Source: a bacterium
GTDB lineage: Bacteria > UBA8248
DNA length: 64,000 bases
Direction: 5' to 3'
Assembly: GCA_965203325.1 (NCBI GenBank)
Contig: OZ241875.1
Location: forward strand, 1,530,212 to 1,594,211
The notes under the pieces were generated by a model, which saw only the letters and a program-made list of their open reading frames with translations, was not told the origin of the DNA and did no database searches. The position numbers and the translations under genes were made by a program. Positions within the stretch are counted from its first letter, which is position 1. Each line of letters starts with the position of its first letter. This document shows positions 31,670-37,370 of this stretch, in pieces.

Positions 31670-32788
31670 TTACGCCGCGGTACGCTCTCGCTCGATCATC
31701 TCCTTGATTCGGGGAATCAGGTCGCGCGCGGCGCGGTGGCATTCCTCCACGTGGGGGTAGCCCGAGAGGATGAACTCATCGATGCCCAATCGCCAGTAGC
31801 CGAGAAGCTCCTCCGCAATTTGCTGGGGCGTTCCCACGAGCGCGGAGCCGCAGTTCACCCGCACCTGGGAGATGCCGTTCCAAAGATGCGGCCCGACCCG
31901 GAAATCCTCGAACGCGCGCGCCTGTGCGGCGGCGCCGACCATGCTCGTGCCGGCCACCAGCGCGCCGCGCTGCGCCTTCACGGTATCCTCCGCGCGGCTG
32001 AGCAACTCGCGCGTCTCATCCCAGGCATCTTCTTCAGTGTCGCGCATTACCAAGTGGGAGCGCACGCCGAAGACGGGCGTCCGCCCCGCCTCGGCGAAAG
32101 AGGCCCGTGCGCGCTCAAGGTGCTTTCGGGTCTCCTCCACCGGCCCTATCCAACCGAGGTAAACGTCCGACTGCGTTCCCGCGAGCTTGAGTGCGGCGGG
32201 CGATGCGCCGCCGAGATAGAACTGGGGCGTCTCTCCCGCCGGGCCGGGCGAGCAGTGCACATCGCTCAGCTTCACGAACTTCCCGTCGAAGCTGACGGGC
32301 TCGGGTTTTTCCCATAGCTTGCGGATGGCGGCTATGAACTCCTCCGCGCGTTCGTAGCGCGTATCGTGGTCGATCCGCTCGCCCATCTTCTCGAACTCGC
32401 CCTTGATGCCGCCGGGCACGACGTTCAGGTCCACGCGCCCGCCCGTAATCTGGCTGAGCGTGGCCGCCATCTGCGCGAACAGGCCGGGGTTCACGAAGCC
32501 GGGGCGCACGGCGATGAGAAAACGTATCTTCTCGCTCCGCGCGGCCAGCGCCGTCACCATCGTCCAGGTCTCCGCCAGGGGGGCGCCCTGGTCGAAAAGC
32601 CCGTTGGCAAAGCGCGTGGGGATGAGCATGGAGTAGAAGCCGTTCTCCTCCGCCGCCTTCACCACCTCGCTCAGGTATTCAAACGTGGGCGGACGCTCGG
32701 CCCGCAGCGTGCCGATGTGCGCGCCGTCACCGTCGATCGGAATGAACCAGTCGAAGCGCGGCGCCGGACGTTCGTGATTGTTGGCCAT
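31670..32788 (-). CDS. LLM-class flavin/F420-dependent oxidoreductase (SsuD-like)
   Basis: MANNHERPAPRFDWFIPIDGDG... N-terminal region of the luciferase-like monooxygenase family. Confidence 0.8.
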   Translation of the reverse strand: MANNHERPAPRFDWFIPIDGDGAHIGTLRAERPPTFEYLSEVVKAAEENGFYSMLIPTRFANGLFDQGAPLAETWTMVTALAARSEKIRFLIAVRPGFVNPGLFAQMAATLSQITGGRVDLNVVPGGIKGEFEKMGERIDHDTRYERAEEFIAAIRKLWEKPEPVSFDGKFVKLSDVHCSPGPAGETPQFYLGGASPAALKLAGTQSDVYLGWIGPVEETRKHLERARASFAEAGRTPVFGVRSHLVMRDTEEDAWDETRELLSRAEDTVKAQRGALVAGTSMVGAAAQARAFEDFRVGPHLWNGISQVRVNCGSALVGTPQQIAEELLGYWRLGIDEFILSGYPHVEECHRAARDLIPRIKEMIERERTAA

Positions 32789-32991
32789 GCGGAATACTCC
32801 CCTGCGTTTTCAGTATGAAATTCCGGCGATTCTATTACAGAAGCAGGGGGCTTGAAAGGCGGTGGCGCTCCGCAATTCCAGTCACTTCCGAACCTGCCAT
32901 TTCTTCATACAGCAGGGCGGTTCGCGAACCACCCCTGCCAAAGGGGGATATCCGTAAAGAATGGAGAACGAGAAACAGGCTGCTTATGATG

Positions 32992-33020
32992 CCCTTTTGA
33001 CTTTTCGGTCCAAAATCGCT
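32992..33020 (+). promoter_or_regulatory. candidate promoter for 33076 gene
   Basis: TTGACT-N17-TAGTCT, same hexamers and spacing as the thiC leader promoter. Confidence 0.3.
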
Positions 33021-33075
33021 AGTCTCCGTGTAGAGGACCCGTACTCTTTCTTACTCACCGGAGGCGGGGGGAACC

Positions 33076-33525
33076 ATGCAAAAACTCTTCGATCATTTCA
33101 AAACCAACGCCGGCGTATGGACGTTCGGGCTATTCATGGCCGCGATAGCGGGCGGCATCTATCAATTCACGGTATTCATGGTCAGCGCCCAGGTCACGCC
33201 CGTCAGCGAGCGCGTCGATGCGGAAGTCAAGAGGCTCGACGCGGCGGATGGGAACACGAACATCAGAATCGCCGATTTCAAGGAGCACATGGACGAGCGT
33301 TTCGACGAATTGAAGAGAGGCGTGGGTGACCTCAAAGAAGATGTAAAGCGCAACAGGGAGCGAATCGATCTTCTCGACAAAAAAATCGAGAGGAAAATAG
33401 AATTCCTGGATCGGAAAATAAGCCGTTTGGATGCGAAAATCGACAAGAAATTCGACCTGCTGGATGCGAAAATGGACGAGAAGTTCAACCTCATCCTGCT
33501 GAGGCTCCCGCCGCTCAAGAAATAG
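33076..33525 (+). CDS. hypothetical membrane-anchored coiled-coil protein with 11-residue repeats
   Basis: N-terminal TM helix. The C-terminus carries four 11-mers (IDLLDKKIERK, IEFLDRKISRL, DAKIDKKFDLL, DAKMDEKFNLI). RBS GGAGG. The antisense ORF 33162..33554 is rejected. Confidence 0.55.
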   Translation: MQKLFDHFKTNAGVWTFGLFMAAIAGGIYQFTVFMVSAQVTPVSERVDAEVKRLDAADGNTNIRIADFKEHMDERFDELKRGVGDLKEDVKRNRERIDLLDKKIERKIEFLDRKISRLDAKIDKKFDLLDAKMDEKFNLILLRLPPLKK

Positions 33526-33578
33526 TTTTCAGATATCGGTCTATGAGCGCTCACGCTCGAATACCCGCCGCATAACCC

Positions 33579-34211
33579 TCAAGCCAGCGTTTCGCCGAGC
33601 GCCGCCAGTTCATCGAGCGCATCCCTGGCGAAGGAACTCTGGAAGACGGCCTCCGCTGCAGCCCCCGGATAGACGGCCCACAGCGCGTCCTTATCGCAGA
33701 ACAAGATGGTGGTGAGAGGCCGCAAAACGATCGCGCCTACAGTTTCGTGCACGTCGGGCCGGTTGATCCACCTGCGGAACGAGGCTTCGCAGTCCGCCGC
33801 AAGTGTGAGTTCTGAATCCCAGAGCGGATCGCCCGAATAGAAGTTCTGAAGATTCGGGCCGGCGAATTCATTCTCAAGATATGCGCGCTCAAGCGGCTGG
33901 AGGCTTTCCGCTTTCTTGTGGATTCTGAACGAATGAGACGCCGCGCAGGCGACGCCTATCCGCATCGTGGCGGGGCTTTGGCGAGATTGCGCGCGATACT
34001 CGAACCACACGCTCTTGCCCGAATAGCGGCCCCGCAAATGGCCGCCTTCGAGATGCGACGTTCCCGCATCCAGAATTTCTGCCAGCGGCTTCATCCGGCG
34101 GGCGAGCCACACGTCGCGGAAGAAGACGTAATAGACGACTGCGCCGAGAACCACCGCCAGGGCGAGGAGGCTCGGTCCGTCCAAATGCACTCCAAAAAGC
34201 GACAAACCCAT
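33579..34211 (-). CDS. hypothetical protein with one N-terminal TM helix
   Basis: ORF with hydrophobic N-terminus LLALAVVLGAVVYYVFF. No recognisable family. Lies downstream, same strand, of the NTPase gene. Confidence 0.45.
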   Translation of the reverse strand: MGLSLFGVHLDGPSLLALAVVLGAVVYYVFFRDVWLARRMKPLAEILDAGTSHLEGGHLRGRYSGKSVWFEYRAQSRQSPATMRIGVACAASHSFRIHKKAESLQPLERAYLENEFAGPNLQNFYSGDPLWDSELTLAADCEASFRRWINRPDVHETVGAIVLRPLTTILFCDKDALWAVYPGAAAEAVFQSSFARDALDELAALGETLA

Positions 34212-34336
34212 AGGCTCAAAACCTTTTGGTGAACCATCTCACAAGTCTACAAACCATCTTTGAGAATCCTACGCTCCGCGAGTCTGGATTCCGGCTTTCG
34301 CCGGAATGACGATGAGAAAAACATTCCCGCAAGAGT

Positions 34337-36685
34337 CTATTCAGCATCACTAAACCTTACTTTTCCTCCGCTAGATTCAACAGCTTCGATTATGATCTTC
34401 CGTATCTCGGACAGAAACTTTCTTGACAGCGGGGGCATCACAGCTTCGGGAAGCGGTGCCGTCTCGTCATAGATATTGCGGATATCACGGGTTCGCAGGC
34501 GTGTGGAACCCCTGCCGCGACGATCATAGGCAGTCCGCCAATCTTCAAGATGTTCTTTGATCAAACGTCGATGAGCCAAACCATCTATAGCCCCGGATAC
34601 TCTTTCCCGCACACTTTCGATCGCCGCTTGCCTCTCTCTTTCATCCCCCTCATTCTTGAGTTCACGAGTCCAACTGGTCGGCTGGTCCAGAAACCGCGAA
34701 ATGGATTCAGTCAATCGATCACTCAGATCCGCAACGGGACGAAGTTCAACATATTCGACGTTGAGTTCGTCCGCGATGCGTCGATTGAGAGCTTTGATAC
34801 TAGCCCAGTGTGCCTTATTTGTTCCTTCGTAACTGCCGAACCCAAGTATAGCCAGCCAACGATTCTGAAATTTCTCAACCGCTTCTCTCACAGCAAGAGC
34901 AATGCCGTCTGTGTCGTAGACAGGACAGGCTTCGGACAATGGCGTTGGTGAGATAGCTTGCTCACAGAATTGGGTCAGTCTCTTCATTTCTTCTTGCACG
35001 AAATTGTTTGCCGCTGGAGGTAACTTGGAAAGTTTCTTATCGACGCCGCCGAGTATGAAACATCGGCCGTCAATTTCCTGTTCCATGCTTCTGGCGACTG
35101 GTTCACTTAGAATGTCCATGTCCCTCAAGCTGGATAGAGCATTCCGGACTGAATCCATAACATGGTTCCGCTTGTCGCTGAATGTTCGAAGATTTTGCCC
35201 CTTTATCTGATCAAAGTGAGTAAAAGCGATTGCGGTTTTGCTGTTGTGGCCACGAGTGGCAACAGCGCGGAGCACTGAAAGAGGAGCAGCCTGCATCGGC
35301 TGCTGAGCATTGTCTACGAGGAGAATGACGTCTGCTTGGTTAAACCGCTCGGTGATATGAGTGGGGACACTAGAGGAAGAATCCGCCGTATGCCCCAAGC
35401 CTTGTCCGTCTATGAGTACTAGTTTTGGTGTATCGTTGGAAAAGTCTGGAAACAAAGGCCCTTTAACGCGAATCCCCTCTACGAGGGGTGTCAACAATCG
35501 ACCAAAATCCCGCCAAAAATTGCTGGAGAACCAGCGGATATTGCGAATGAATTCATCCCGGTCTTCTGTGTTGAACAACCAAAATATGGGCCACCCCTCC
35601 GAGGAATGCCGACATATCTCTCCCGCTTTCAAAAGGTCGAACCGCGCCCGGAGCGCATCCAACACATTATGGACAAGCGCATAATAATGATCGTCATTGC
35701 TGATGTAGGTGTCGAGTTCTTCTTCGATTAACTGCTTCGCTGCATCACGGTCGGGGTTAGCAGGATTATCGAAATCAACGCCGAGGTCGGCTGATAATCG
35801 TTCGCGGGCTCTCTTTGTCAACTGCAAGATCTGATCGATGAACCCTTCAAGAACGTCCCGGTTTTCGGCTCTTTCACCATCCGTGAGACCCGTTTCTTCA
35901 TTAGTGTTTGGGCTCACGCTCACATCTTCCTCATAATCGAAAGAAAACTCATCTTCTTCACTGTGCTGTTCAGTGGCCTCTCGCCATCCCCCGAGAACAT
36001 AGCTGAGACGGAATTTTTGGTCGCGATGATTCAGGAAGCGTTCGGCTATTTTGTCTCTGAGAGCACCTTCGTACGCAGCAAGACAGGCATCAATGATGCA
36101 TTCTTCTACGTTCGCTTGAACCTGAAACTCGGTAAAGAATGTAACGACAGCCTCAAAACTGCCCTCTGCCTGCACGACTTCGATGTCGGCAATCGTAGTC
36201 TTGTTAGGGGCTGTTGACGGGAACCGGTCATTATCGGGGTCCGATCCGATAAGTTGCCTTAGCAGCGAAGTCTTTCCGGCCCCGGTCGTCCCAACGAATA
36301 AAACGCGTGAATAGCCATCTTCCTTTCTAGGAAGTGGGATGTGGACTTCTCGCAGGTCTCCCGGCTTGGATCGCCCGGCTTGGATCGCATCATAGAATGC
36401 GTTGACAATGACCTTTGAGAAGCGTTGCTCCGCTTCGGGACGTTTGGTGCTGTTCCACCAGGATCGGTCAGAAAGAATCGTATTCATTTCAGCAACTAGA
36501 CTATCCGCCTCGATTTCGTTTTCCGTCCCCAGACCACGACGCATTTTGAGACCCGTCTTCCCTTTGGCGTCCTTTCGGAGGGGATGACGAAAGCTGATTG
36601 ACCATCCTGGACGATTCGTGCGTGATTTCGAGGCGGTATAGGTTCGGTCAGGCGCGTCATTGTTTTTTGCCACTTTTCTCACCAT
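34337..36685 (-). CDS. large P-loop NTPase of unknown family (782 aa); candidate defence-island protein
   Basis: Walker A VLFVGTTGAGKTSLLRQLIG, DxxG-like KLVLIDGQGLGH and TxxD-like AFTHFDQIKG motifs. AGGAGG RBS. Visibly lower GC than the flanks. Confidence 0.7.
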   Translation of the reverse strand: MVRKVAKNNDAPDRTYTASKSRTNRPGWSISFRHPLRKDAKGKTGLKMRRGLGTENEIEADSLVAEMNTILSDRSWWNSTKRPEAEQRFSKVIVNAFYDAIQAGRSKPGDLREVHIPLPRKEDGYSRVLFVGTTGAGKTSLLRQLIGSDPDNDRFPSTAPNKTTIADIEVVQAEGSFEAVVTFFTEFQVQANVEECIIDACLAAYEGALRDKIAERFLNHRDQKFRLSYVLGGWREATEQHSEEDEFSFDYEEDVSVSPNTNEETGLTDGERAENRDVLEGFIDQILQLTKRARERLSADLGVDFDNPANPDRDAAKQLIEEELDTYISNDDHYYALVHNVLDALRARFDLLKAGEICRHSSEGWPIFWLFNTEDRDEFIRNIRWFSSNFWRDFGRLLTPLVEGIRVKGPLFPDFSNDTPKLVLIDGQGLGHTADSSSSVPTHITERFNQADVILLVDNAQQPMQAAPLSVLRAVATRGHNSKTAIAFTHFDQIKGQNLRTFSDKRNHVMDSVRNALSSLRDMDILSEPVARSMEQEIDGRCFILGGVDKKLSKLPPAANNFVQEEMKRLTQFCEQAISPTPLSEACPVYDTDGIALAVREAVEKFQNRWLAILGFGSYEGTNKAHWASIKALNRRIADELNVEYVELRPVADLSDRLTESISRFLDQPTSWTRELKNEGDERERQAAIESVRERVSGAIDGLAHRRLIKEHLEDWRTAYDRRGRGSTRLRTRDIRNIYDETAPLPEAVMPPLSRKFLSEIRKIIIEAVESSGGKVRFSDAE

Positions 36686-36741
36686 TCAATCCTCCTAATG
36701 AATGTATCCCGAAACAACAATGCGTTGTTCCTTGTTGTGGC

Positions 36742-36770
36742 AATATATGACGAACGCAGGATTTTGTCAA
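36742..36770 (-). promoter_or_regulatory. near-consensus sigma70 promoter of the NTPase gene
   Basis: Minus strand TTGACA-N17-TATATT. The 5'UTR contains the inverted repeat AACAACgcattGTTGTT. Confidence 0.45.
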
Positions 36771-36866
36771 GAATTTTAGTACAACTCGGAACAACATTTT
36801 TAGAATAAATTAAAGAGTAAGTTCATCTCACCAAAAAACAACCCCACCAACCATCCGTGTATGACT

Positions 36867-37370
36867 CTATGAAAGACCCTCCTGCGCATCCCGCCAGGCG
36901 GGGCGGCTGCCGGGGAACATGTCCGAATCGTGGAACACCTCGATGCGGTTGCCGTCGGGGTCCAGGAAATATATGCCTTCGTGTCCGCCCCAGAGGCCGT
37001 TGCTCGCATCGAGGCGCAAGGGGCCCCAGACGACCTCGATGTCGGGGCGCGAGCGGATGTAGGCCACCGCGTCGTCGAACGCTTGCTGGTCGGCCACCTC
37101 GAACGCGAGGTGGTGCAGGCCTACGTCGCGGCGCGGCACGGTGTCCTCGCCTTCTTCTTCCACCCAGTCTTCGGGCACGCTGAATATCGCCAGTTGGTGG
37201 TGGTAGTCATCCAGATACATGAACGCCGAGCCGAACGGCGCCGCCGGGTGGCTGCCCGCCTCGTGGCGCGAGCGCAGCTTGAAGCCCAGGACTTCGGAAT
37301 AGAACTTGATGGCGCGATCCAGATCGCGCACCTTGATGCCCATGTGCTGCAGGCGGATGGAGCGAATCAT
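36867..37370 (-). CDS. VOC family protein (glyoxalase / extradiol dioxygenase fold)
   Basis: Paired beta-alpha-beta-beta-beta modules, HHLAFEV motif. RBS GGGAGG. Confidence 0.8.
   Translation of the reverse strand: MIRSIRLQHMGIKVRDLDRAIKFYSEVLGFKLRSRHEAGSHPAAPFGSAFMYLDDYHHQLAIFSVPEDWVEEEGEDTVPRRDVGLHHLAFEVADQQAFDDAVAYIRSRPDIEVVWGPLRLDASNGLWGGHEGIYFLDPDGNRIEVFHDSDMFPGSRPAWRDAQEGLS

Follow-up and report, generated by a model that had tools for sequence, protein, structure and literature searches.

The window, a 64,000-nt stretch of contig OZ241875.1 (positions 1,530,212 to 1,594,211 of the forward strand), carries a 782-aa P-loop gene on the minus strand of a Nitrospinota chromosome, with a VOC gene upstream of it and a 210-aa gene and a coiled-coil gene downstream (Table 1). 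The low-GC block noticed by eye in the original prediction is real: GC is 0.475-0.535 across 34200-36999, compared with 0.60-0.70 in the flanks.

Table 1. Features of the GTPase locus (window coordinates)
Feature	Position	Strand	Remarks
149-aa ORF (coiled-coil gene)	33076..33525	+	one N-terminal hydrophobic segment
210-aa ORF	33579..34211	-	one N-terminal hydrophobic segment
Horizontally acquired insert, 2,694 bp	34182..36875	-	blastn vs empty-site relatives, junction alignment
New start codon and first 10 codons (MGLSLFGVHL) of native 210-aa gene	34182..34211	-	supplied by insert
Stem-loop TCATTCCGGC-GAAA-GCCGGAATC	34287..34309	-	28 nt after stop codon; unique in window
CDS, 782-aa dynamin-superfamily GTPase (DLP)	34337..36685	-	
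G4 variant THFD, aa 489-492	35210..35221	-	FTHFD invariant in 26 homologues
G3 DGQG, aa 426-429	35399..35410	-	IDGQGLGHT invariant in 26 homologues
G1/P-loop GTTGAGKTS, aa 132-140	36266..36292	-	invariant in alignment of 26 homologues
N-terminal β3-α domain, aa ~14-75	36461..36646	-	RPGW..FRHPLR..RRGLGT motif; candidate DNA-binding, autoregulatory
Shine-Dalgarno AGGAGG	36691..36696	-	5 nt before ATG at 36685
Extra GTTGTT	36713..36718	-	6-N5-6 hairpin with AACAAC 36729-36724; window-specific
Downstream operator-like arm, inverted 8-mers GCCACAAC-AA-GGAACAAC	36724..36741	-	directly after -10 (~+1)
σ70-type promoter TTGACA (36770-36765)-N17-TATATT (36747-36742)	36742..36770	-	11/12 consensus
Upstream operator-like arm, direct 8-mers GTTGTTCC-GA-GTTGTACT	36778..36795	-	ends 7 nt upstream of -35
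New VOC gene 3' end (…EG-LS-stop)	36867..36875	-	supplied by insert

The gene sits on a single-gene horizontal insertion between two native genes. In blastn comparisons with relatives whose site is empty (L076, L077, L080-L082), homology ends at window position 36876 and restarts at 34181, and the GC of the segment between is 0.493, whereas the window as a whole has 0.625. At the empty sites (L076-L083) the order is VOC, a 202/203-aa gene overlapping it by 7 nt, the coiled-coil gene and LLM. Junction alignment places the insert in the VOC/203-aa overlap, where it takes the place of ~11 bp (GAATGCTAATC); the native gene start in relatives, MLIDGPSLLALAVV, overlaps the VOC stop, and the start supplied by the insert is also kept in the occupied alleles (L084-L087), whose junctions are identical. 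The borders carry neither a mobility gene nor a tRNA or a target-site duplication. An ancestral gene in these Nitrospinota, lost by precise deletion at the empty sites, is unlikely, because those sites retain an intact overlapping junction. As had been predicted, horizontally acquired DNA of deviant composition lies between ordinary metabolic genes; it is absent from L076-L083 and present in L084-L087, but the ‘~4-kb island’ shrinks to the insert alone.

The two small genes fall outside the foreign DNA. The original prediction grouped them with the P-loop gene as a co-acquired defence or abortive-infection module, an NTPase sensor with two membrane effectors, one a one-TM protein (210 aa), the other an N-anchored coiled-coil protein (149 aa). 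The genes are adjacent, the 210-aa gene lies downstream of the NTPase on the same strand, the hydrophobic N-terminal segment ascribed to each small protein is there, and the coiled-coil gene also has a low GC. Relatives without the NTPase nevertheless have both small genes in unchanged order, with the 203-aa gene overlapping the VOC stop codon, and so both are native core genes; the second patch of low GC corresponds to the coiled-coil gene, whose GC is likewise 0.47-0.50 in relatives with an empty site. Neither protein recurs beside ~70 homologues of the NTPase in other genomes or has a Pfam or PADLOC match. Synteny refutes the three-gene arrangement, to which we attach next to no probability. 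The palindrome TTCGCGAA, proposed as an island boundary, occurs 7 times against 3.25 ± 1.6 expected, and its copy at 32921 is in native DNA outside the insert.

The 782-aa ORF and its GTTGAGKTS, LIDGQG and THFD motifs are as described, although the protein does not lack a recognisable architecture. Foldseek searches of the structure model (moderate overall confidence, pLDDT 73.8, pTM 0.60) against the PDB identify SynDLP as the best match (E = 9e-7), followed by CjDLP1/2, Fzo1, MFN1/2, Drp1 and LeoA. LIDGQG follows a predicted β-strand (422-426) and THFD another (484-489), and on this model they are the G3 and G4 motifs of a dynamin-superfamily GTPase. The protein is by its fold class a soluble GTPase of about 765-782 aa of the bacterial-DLP/mitofusin-like type, predicted to consist of a small β3-α domain, a large G domain with a ~200-aa helical insertion and long helical bundles; GTPase activity is presumed. 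Searches with Pfam, PADLOC (2023) and NCBIfam match the P-loop region alone and below cut-offs, and no PADLOC model for the block reaches beyond it. The gene has a dN/dS of 0.14-0.19; it is functional and under purifying selection.

The N-terminal domain superposes on the integrase arm-type DNA-binding domain 3jtz with an r.m.s.d. of 1.4 Å over 47 aa, and also on 2wcc (λ Int DBD-arm DNA complex, 2.7 Å) and 1z1b. Integrase arm-type domains (λ Int N-domain, HPI integrase; Pfam Arm-DNA-bind_3) likewise have a three-stranded antiparallel sheet packed against a helix, and they recognise short direct repeats, as the phased 8-mers of the GTPase cassette are. Profile similarity is, however, absent (hhalign probability 0.16, no Pfam match), and unlike in tyrosine integrases no recombinase domain follows.

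Far from being an orphan, the NTPase has at least 2,059 matches among 8,000 candidates scored, of which the best 120 are full-length and 59-76% identical. At 50% identity the family forms 1,520 clusters, with a patchy distribution over >10 phyla; 75 loci were located in 185,579 species genomes (>10 phyla), with ~60% identity between phyla. Homologues are found on 11 plasmids, as Tn7-like cargo (one) and on an ICE-like element adjoining replication and partition genes (one), and integrases lie nearby in 11 loci; none was found in phage records, the family being essentially absent from phages. Many, including that of the window, are surrounded by housekeeping genes. Immediate neighbours are heterogeneous (107 Pfam families among 140 proteins), and no co-travelling gene is conserved across >10 phyla. 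PADLOC matches are among these neighbours. Of the type I R-M proteins, HsdR occurs near homologues at 10 loci, HsdM at 8 and HsdS at 5; in L048, L058, L062 and L067 hsdM immediately follows the homologue in the same orientation. A Caballeronia plasmid homologue adjoins CBASS and an AbiE-like pair, and Rhodococcus homologues have Abi or type I R-M alongside. The mobile, defence-type context that had been predicted is therefore seen near homologues elsewhere, and these observations support the view of the family as cargo of the accessory, mobile-element or defence-island type. Since it is patchy, moves on mobile elements and lies repeatedly beside type I R-M or other defence genes, we infer a role in genetic conflict or defence; by this association, a single-gene defence function is plausible.

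The same contexts would suit a gene that serves the mobile element rather than the host, for example an anti-defence or establishment factor, an entry-exclusion protein, or a DNA-segregation or remodelling protein carried by ICEs, plasmids and transposons and binding DNA through its N-terminal domain. Presence on plasmids, the ICE-like element, Tn7-like cargo and integrase-adjacent islands fits such a selfish or maintenance function, as do the putative DNA-binding domain with strict self-contained regulation, which suits a gene working in any host, and the near-absence from phages. We consider it fairly unlikely: the head-to-tail position before hsdMSR is typical of defence cargo, and in the window and at many other loci the gene stands by itself in the chromosome, where no backbone of a mobile element surrounds it and where purifying selection has kept it in several lineages that have diverged, which points to an advantage for the cell.

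The cis-elements of the insert are conserved with the gene. The promoter and Shine-Dalgarno sequence that had been picked out are present, so that the NTPase has a strong promoter of its own; the promoter is conserved in the occupied alleles, and TTGACA recurs at the equivalent position in most homologue loci. Around the promoter lie four copies of GTTGT(T/A/G)(C/G)C in 10-bp phase, the inverted downstream copies overlapping the Shine-Dalgarno sequence in most homologues. Of 60 loci with an N-terminal domain in the homologue, 48 show this arrangement, across phyla; the strict form, with forward pair, -35 and reverse pair at fixed offsets, is seen in 47 of the 60, or 49 with L007 and L012. Forward and reverse pairs occur together in none of 1,831 control windows, and no sites are found at the homologues lacking the N-terminal domain (0/5); recognisable sites are missing at six loci whose homologue has it. 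The forward and reverse pairs are also present in the further loci L084-L094 and L097 and absent from the empty-site loci. In the window, GTTGT-N5-GTTGT has two exact matches (0.05 expected), one being the upstream arm, whose 8-mer pair is conserved in L084-86. Operator-like repeats do flank the promoter, and the AACAAC-N5-GTTGTT proposed earlier as the operator in the 5'UTR exists (36729-36713), but that hairpin is not conserved in L084-L086, which are among the closest occupied alleles, the conserved element being a different and larger arrangement. The stem-loop beyond the stop codon, conserved in L084 and L085 and degenerate in L086 and L087, is probably a transcription stop or 3' end on its sequence; lacking a T-run, it does not qualify as an intrinsic terminator of the canonical kind, and a terminator scan did not call it.

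The repeats might instead form a DNA cruciform or hairpin (e.g. in single-stranded DNA on entry) or be sites for a host factor. The two arms are reverse complements, match better within than between loci (81 mismatches against 100 ± 5 shuffled) and in L048, L054 and L029 show perfect 15-nt complementarity with locus-specific spacers. The pentamer is, however, near-invariant across phyla (positions 1-5 of the 8-mer at least 97% invariant in 188 units) and does not covary, while the 2-nt spacers show no more complementarity than chance would give (56/94 mismatches against 61.9 ± 4.1 in shuffles) and an Rfam search gave no match. A cruciform would place -35 and -10 in the unpaired loop, an arrangement not known from single-strand promoters. 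No one host factor is common to >10 phyla, and the sites are missing where the homologue has no N-terminal domain; we judge these readings improbable.

The GTPase gene travels as a self-contained expression cassette with its own promoter and operator-like sites. Because there is no co-travelling gene and homologues without the N-terminal domain have no sites, the most parsimonious mechanism would be that this domain binds the GTTGT sites and represses its own promoter. The most likely role would be that of a single-gene anti-phage or anti-MGE system, its effector step being perhaps GTP-driven oligomerization, as in Eleos/LeoABC, DynA and Mx. This account as a whole, with insertion of a dynamin-like GTPase cassette, self-repression and a conflict or defence role, is one that we favour with modest confidence.

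Like DynA or IniA, the protein could also be a dynamin of general membrane stress or repair, beneficial when antibiotics, pore formers or the like stress the envelope; it would not be specifically antiviral, and HGT would have spread it as a gene for accessory fitness. Its closest folds are the membrane-remodelling SynDLP, CjDLP1/2, IniA and mitofusins, and DynA, itself a housekeeping gene, is described in two sources as protecting against phage through membrane integrity (10.1101/2022.05.11.491447; PMC8844932). We think this unlikely. No hydrophobic or TM-like segment is present (maximum KD 0.92), which gives no sign of a membrane mechanism of the DynA kind; membrane DLPs have nothing that corresponds to the extra N-terminal domain or the DNA operator system; and the neighbourhoods are enriched for type I R-M, a DNA-directed defence, and mobile elements, not envelope genes.

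With the BDLP/mitofusin class (Synechocystis SynDLP, Campylobacter DLP1/DLP2, IniA, B. subtilis DynA) the protein shares a large G domain with G1, G3 and G4, helical bundles on both sides of it and a size of ~600-800 aa. Sequence likeness is confined to the P-loop (Pfam Dynamin_N 22 bits, cut-off 27), and the protein differs from the class in its THFD as G4, its G1-G3 gap of ~290 aa (due to the helical insertion, including an acidic disordered loop at aa 238-264), the additional β3-α domain and the lack of a hydrophobic paddle or TM segment. It stands alone rather than as a tandem DLP pair or two-headed fusion, and is mobile and patchily distributed, unlike lineage-conserved BDLPs.

WYL/CapW/BrxR-type control places defence operons under a dedicated repressor. 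The logic would be similar, in that repressor sites bracket the promoter of the locus itself and control works after transfer to any host; here, however, there is no separate regulator gene, the effector GTPase itself contains the putative DNA-binding module, and the candidate fold is a predicted β3-α domain instead of wHTH-WYL (PMC13622015 concerns WYL repressors of defence systems). Eleos or ‘Dynamins’ (LeoA with LeoBC) are likewise dynamin-superfamily GTPases found in defence islands of many phyla (10.1101/2022.05.11.491447), and Eleos defence requires the P-loop (Millman et al., 2022, 10.1101/2022.05.11.491447). In contrast to Eleos, which has neither an N-terminal DNA-binding-like domain nor a GTTGT operator, the present system is one gene with no conserved partner, and PADLOC LeoA/LeoBC match its P-loop only (E = 0.014; with distant homologues, 1.9e-4 to 0.08). 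The insert carries a stand-alone mobile dynamin-like GTPase with a conserved promoter/operator-like cassette, which lies beyond the curated defence models save for its P-loop.

The NTPase gene of the window lies on a single-gene insertion of 2,694 bp. Windowed GC is 0.475-0.535 over 34200-36999 and ~0.52-0.53 over 32800-33600, with flanks at 0.60-0.70, and an ORF scan of this low-GC block returns the 782-, 210- and 149-residue frames that the original prediction had described. The genes on either side of the block, a glyoxalase-type gene (VOC) and a luciferase-like monooxygenase (LLM), encode proteins that belong to large 90%-identity clusters whose named members are Nitrospinota. In relatives (L076-L083) the gene order is HpcH, (LLM), VOC, a 202/203-residue gene, a 160-168-residue coiled-coil gene, LLM, ADH and Usp; the 202/203-residue gene overlaps the VOC stop codon by 7 nt, the coiled-coil gene is on the opposite strand and the NTPase gene is absent, that is, the sites are empty. 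Blastn and base-level junction alignment show that homology to these relatives stops at window position 36876 and restarts at 34181; the insert is therefore 34182..36875 (GC 0.493; window, 0.625). It has cost about 11 bp of native sequence (GAATGCTAATC), and it supplies a new tail to VOC (…EG-LS-stop) and, to the 210-residue gene, a new start codon together with its first ten residues. The orthologous site is empty in close relatives and the composition is deviant; the insert is horizontally acquired, as had been proposed.

Coordinates of the features in the window and of related features in fetched loci
Feature	Position	Strand	Remark
782-aa ORF (NTPase)	34337..36685	-	ORF scan
210-aa ORF	33579..34211	-	ORF scan
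149-aa ORF	33076..33525	+	ORF scan
LLM	31670..32788	-	one side of block
VOC/glyoxalase gene	36867..37370	-	other side of block
TTGACA-N17-TATATT	36770-36742		11/12 consensus positions matched
AGGAGG	36696-36691		5 nt upstream of ATG
AACAAC-N5-GTTGTT	36729-36713		
Exact paired-site pattern	36781-36795; 36724-36738		sole occurrences in the 64-kb window, 0.05 expected
Four-site cassette	36724-36795; L002 7934-8009	- (window)	
Stem-loop 3' of NTPase stop codon	34287-34309	-	
Native one-TM/coiled-coil pair	33076-34211; L076 8498-9681		
TTCGCGAA	15860, 17611, 30623, 32921, 47220, 48127, 54730		
DDE transposase	L081 9843-11216		DUF772/DDE_Tnp_1
Extra monooxygenase gene	L080 6737-7759; L083 2302-3324		5' of VOC
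Branch lacking the N-terminal domain	L095 4527-8010; L096 4513-7986		Rhodococcus plasmids
Methanosarcinaceae MAG matches	L071 8001-8576; L073 8001-10167		
Tn7-like cargo / ICE-like coordinates	L091 / L092 9900-15642; L093 190-16295		

Other Nitrospinota contigs (L084-L087) carry NTPase genes 75-76% identical to that of the window at the same site and with identical junctions, which points to a single ancestral insertion in these Nitrospinota with later divergence. The gene has a dN/dS of 0.14-0.19, which indicates purifying selection. Compared with the core flanks, its dN is about three times as high (0.14; flanks, 0.04), and its dS is higher as well (0.87-1.0; flanks, 0.26-0.64). There is no mobility gene (integrase or transposase) inside the insert, no target-site duplication or terminal inverted repeat at its junctions and no tRNA at the site. 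Close to each end there are short GATGGTT repeats, which were considered as a hallmark and put down to chance. When the non-coding ends were compared at the DNA level with the 75 loci of the family, similarity was confined to the coding sequence. A perfect 9-bp stem-loop, TCATTCCGGC-GAAA-GCCGGAATC, follows the stop codon; it is kept in L084 and L085, decayed in L086 and L087, and resembles the ATTCC…GGAAT palindromic repeats of other bacteria. It was rejected as a host REP-like repeat, being present as a single copy in the 64-kb window.

The NTPase plus small-membrane-protein module of the original prediction does not survive these comparisons. Both small genes belong to the native locus and occur where the NTPase gene is missing, and their products never recur beside its homologues elsewhere. 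Since the coiled-coil gene is equally low in GC in relatives that lack the insert (0.47-0.50; 0.47-0.52 overall), the supposed 4-kb island merges two unrelated things. For this window, a base-accurate single-gene insertion that has rewired two native gene ends replaces a speculative three-gene module.

In these Nitrospinota the one-TM gene (203/210 residues) and the divergently oriented gene for the N-anchored coiled-coil protein, which has 11-residue repeats, form a conserved native pair; the two evolve faster than the genes around them, by a factor of about 3-6 (dN 0.14-0.26). The 210-residue protein has no Pfam, NCBIfam or PADLOC match, and scans of the 149-residue protein against the same collections return generic coiled-coil noise alone. 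One relative (L081) has a DDE transposase inserted between LLM and the coiled-coil gene, so that different lineages have received independent insertions in this small region. Gene content fluctuates further at the locus, with an extra luciferase-like monooxygenase gene 5' of VOC that is intact (340 aa) in some relatives, split (99 + 209 aa) in others and missing from the window and L076. The TTCGCGAA palindromes, thought to bound the island, are in weak excess (7 copies, 3.25±1.6 expected; 2/100 shuffles reach 7), and the relevant copy, at 32921, lies outside the insert, within a native intergenic palindrome of 12 nt, GGTTCGCGAACC.

The NTPase is no orphan. A database search gives 2,059 significant matches among 8,000 candidates scored, the best 120 all being about 764 aa long with 59-76% identity over 98% of the query, and an exhaustive profile search at E ≤ 1e-3 yields 1,520 clusters (50% identity), or 540 at E ≤ 1e-30. 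Homologue names say nothing beyond 'hypothetical' or 'predicted GTPase', and literature searches surfaced no description of the family, which is not proof of absence. No Pfam, NCBIfam or PADLOC model scores above threshold and all matches are local to the P-loop, including those of Pfam MMR_HSR1 and Dynamin_N (22.0 bits, below the cut-off of 27, residues 128-150 alone). A search of the family profile against PDB sequences found nothing.

The three protein motifs of the original prediction, GTTGAGKTS, LIDGQG and THFD, are all present, and the architecture proves recognizable. Mean column identity is 71% in an alignment of 26 sequences, throughout which the G1 P-loop (GxxxxGK[S/T]; GTTGAGKTS, aa 132-140) is invariant. 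Alignment and an AlphaFold2 model of moderate confidence (pLDDT 73.8, pTM 0.60) place the likewise invariant D426-G-Q-G429 after a strand at 422-426 and T489-H-F-D492 after a strand at 484-489. Foldseek comparison of the model with solved structures gives 21 top matches that are all dynamin-superfamily, led by SynDLP (E 9e-7), Campylobacter DLP1/2, Fzo1, MFN1/2 and Drp1 and followed by LeoA, EHD4 and IIGP1; the motifs earlier read as 'DxxG-like' and 'TxxD-like' therefore correspond to dynamin-type G3 and G4, the latter a variant of [N/T]KxD with HF replacing K-x. The gap of about 290 residues between G1 and G3/G4 is due to a helical insertion containing an acidic disordered loop (aa 238-264). 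Residues 500-770 are modelled as long helices, and hydropathy reveals no TM-like segment (maximum KD 0.92). The model has an enlarged G domain and a helical stalk or bundle with a fold like that of solved dynamins. The protein thus shares the fold and the G motifs of the dynamin superfamily, though the Pfam Dynamin_N threshold is not reached, and we file it as an uncharacterized variant within that superfamily, with GTP hydrolysis as a predicted activity; assembly-stimulated hydrolysis and the binding and remodelling of membranes are general hallmarks of the superfamily. Its closest structural relatives are bacterial dynamin-like proteins (DLPs) of the BDLP/mitofusin class.

The family was recovered at 75 loci from 185,579 genomes (one per species), with about 60% identity between phyla. 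Hosts are Nitrospirota, Alpha-, Beta- and Gammaproteobacteria, Acidobacteriota, Planctomycetota, Binatia, Entotheonella, Cyanobacteria, Chloroflexota, Bacillota, Ignavibacteria, Omnitrophota, Thermodesulfobacteriota, Gemmatimonadota, Actinomycetota and Methanosarcinaceae. The matches in Methanosarcinaceae MAGs are fragmentary (L071 covers aa 28-217 alone) or have broken ORFs (L073, gene GC 0.35), which suggests pseudogenized transfers into archaea. The GC of the gene is at least 5 points under that of its flanks in 21/68 loci and elsewhere tracks the host. Eleven plasmids carry the family; one copy adjoins CBASS and an AbiE-like pair, and Abi is adjacent on a plasmid too. Identical copies (P0030) are cargo of a Tn7-like transposon with TnsA, TnsB, TniB and TniQ on 23 contigs, and a Parvibaculum copy (P0020) is carried by an ICE-like element alongside genes for RepA, ParA, DUF736, DUF2840 and Toprim proteins. 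Phage records are all but free of the family: 0 of 50,697 in INPHARED, and 1 of 2.9 million contigs in IMG/VR.

Clustering of all ORFs within ±8 kb of about 70 loci identifies no universally conserved partner gene, and the 140 immediate neighbours fall into 107 Pfam families. These neighbours are a mixture of defence and mobile-element genes (type I MTases, AbiEi, CBASS cyclases, SMC-like ATPases and IS elements) and housekeeping genes. Within ±8 kb, tyrosine integrases occur in 11 loci and type I R-M genes, as raw counts over about 68 loci, as HsdR (10), HsdM (8) and HsdS (5); in L048, L058, L062 and L067 the NTPase gene is 0-81 bp upstream of hsdM, head-to-tail on the same strand. By association only, this company supports a candidate role in conflict or defence, and to that extent the candidate defence function survives, for the single gene and not for a three-gene module. 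Many loci sit among housekeeping genes, and alternative readings are that the protein serves the maintenance of mobile elements or acts against defence on their behalf, or that it has a general role in membrane repair.

The promoter, ribosome-binding sequence and inverted repeat of the original prediction are all found upstream of the gene. In many loci the ORF is over-extended and shares in-frame pseudo-peptides just 5' of the true start codon, so a conserved DNA motif was suspected in the leader. With positions anchored on the FRHP codon in 60 loci, the order GTTGT-N5-GTTGT, about 10 nt, TTGACA, -10 box, ACAAC-N5-ACAAC is found at fixed offsets in 47/60, and in 49/60 when L007 and L012, where the cassette is further upstream, are included; in 1,831 control windows drawn from these loci, either pair taken singly appears in about 1% and the two together in 0. 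Explicit layout of 48 loci defines the operator unit as the 8-mer G-T-T-G-T-[T/A/G]-[C/G]-C, with positions 1-5 at least 97% invariant over 188 units. Two direct 8-mers with 10-bp phasing end about 9-10 nt 5' of the -35 box; two inverted 8-mers start roughly at +1 and in most loci stop about 3 nt short of the ATG, their spacer (nAGGA) doubling there as the Shine-Dalgarno sequence. The four-site cassette accompanies the gene in more than 10 phyla (about 60 loci). Over the 97 fetched loci the exact pattern occurs almost only as a +/- pair just upstream of the gene, including at loci retrieved once the pattern had been fixed (L084-L094, L097), and it is absent from the empty-site loci. The tight control originally proposed thus survives, corrected to a strong self-contained cassette; the hairpin AACAAC-N5-GTTGTT does not stand as its operator, being one conserved pentamer plus a window-specific GTTGTT missing even in L084-L086.

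Two readings of the inverted arrays were compared. A stem-loop or RNA element was rejected: there is no Rfam match, and the sequence is invariant instead of covarying. Between the 2-nt spacers, complementarity does not exceed chance (56/94 mismatches; 61.9±4.1 in shuffles), which favours four putative protein-recognition sites over a base-paired stem.

The protein that would bind these sites may be the NTPase itself. Ahead of the helical and G regions the model has a small N-terminal β3-α domain (NTD; predicted β18-22, β28-38, β44-51 and α57-72) with the invariant signature RPGW..FRHPLR..RRGLGT. It matches no Pfam Arm-DNA-bind family, and homology to the Arm domains of P4-type integrases was rejected (hhalign against those of co-resident integrases, probability 0.16); a weaker, fold-level resemblance of the model to arm-type integrase DNA-binding domains is all that is retained. 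As no regulator gene travels with the NTPase gene, and the sites are present in 0/5 NTD-less homologues (Longimicrobiales, Acidimicrobiales), autoregulation by the NTD is proposed as the most parsimonious reading, with the NTD likely a fused regulator domain. In an NTD-less branch of about 650-683 aa, on Rhodococcus plasmids and at L064-L066, L072, L069 and L074, the gene is the last of a conserved operon of three, and the two upstream genes are small, overlap and belong to no known family; the neighbours are again Abi, integrase and IS genes or else a type I R-M system. The two small genes may be split-off partners standing in for the NTD.

In animals, dynamin-like GTPases (Mx, GBP, IRG) have an established role as antiviral effectors. 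To our knowledge, bacterial dynamin-like proteins have so far been tied to defence solely through the two- or three-gene Eleos systems and the housekeeping DynA. It is conceivable, though we consider it improbable, that the family is a new self-regulating immune module in one polypeptide, a dynamin-like mechanochemical GTPase fused to a putative sequence-specific DNA-binding domain. Bound to the four phased GTTGTWSC sites, the protein would occupy its own promoter; infection or DNA entry would titrate or re-target it onto foreign nucleic acid or nucleoprotein, de-repressing its own gene and assembling the protein as effector. If so, this would be the first case of a dynamin that is directed to DNA and regulates itself, and the single gene would be a portable defence cassette working across more than 10 phyla. 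As a defence gene it would offer a minimal, genetically tractable system for how a dynamin recognizes and stops an invader. With its four-site operator and fused domain, the family is unusually easy to test.

In function, the nearest analogue is Eleos (LeoA/LeoBC), in which two or three dynamin-like genes form an operon within defence islands; it protects against jumbo phages and needs the P-loops of its proteins to do so (Millman et al. preprint, 10.1101/2022.05.11.491447). The PADLOC check of the original prediction gave sub-threshold matches: in PADLOC-DB v2.0.0 there is no significant full-length HMM match, the best (mad8, E 1.9e-4) is local to the P-loop, LeoA reaches E 0.014 over aa 126-150 alone, and distant homologues give E-values of 1.9e-4 to 0.08 with the LeoA/LeoBC models. 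Overall, the original observation is partly confirmed and its interpretation partly supported. Eleos has two (or three) consecutive dynamin-like genes, whereas here there is a single gene with no second DLP adjacent in the window; for this reason, and because the LeoA match is confined to the P-loop, the family falls outside Eleos. It differs from bacterial Eleos and DynA in being large (about 1,500 clusters at 50% identity), unannotated and encoded by a single gene, in moving between phyla on plasmids, ICE-like and Tn7-like elements, and in its conserved promoter/operator cassette.
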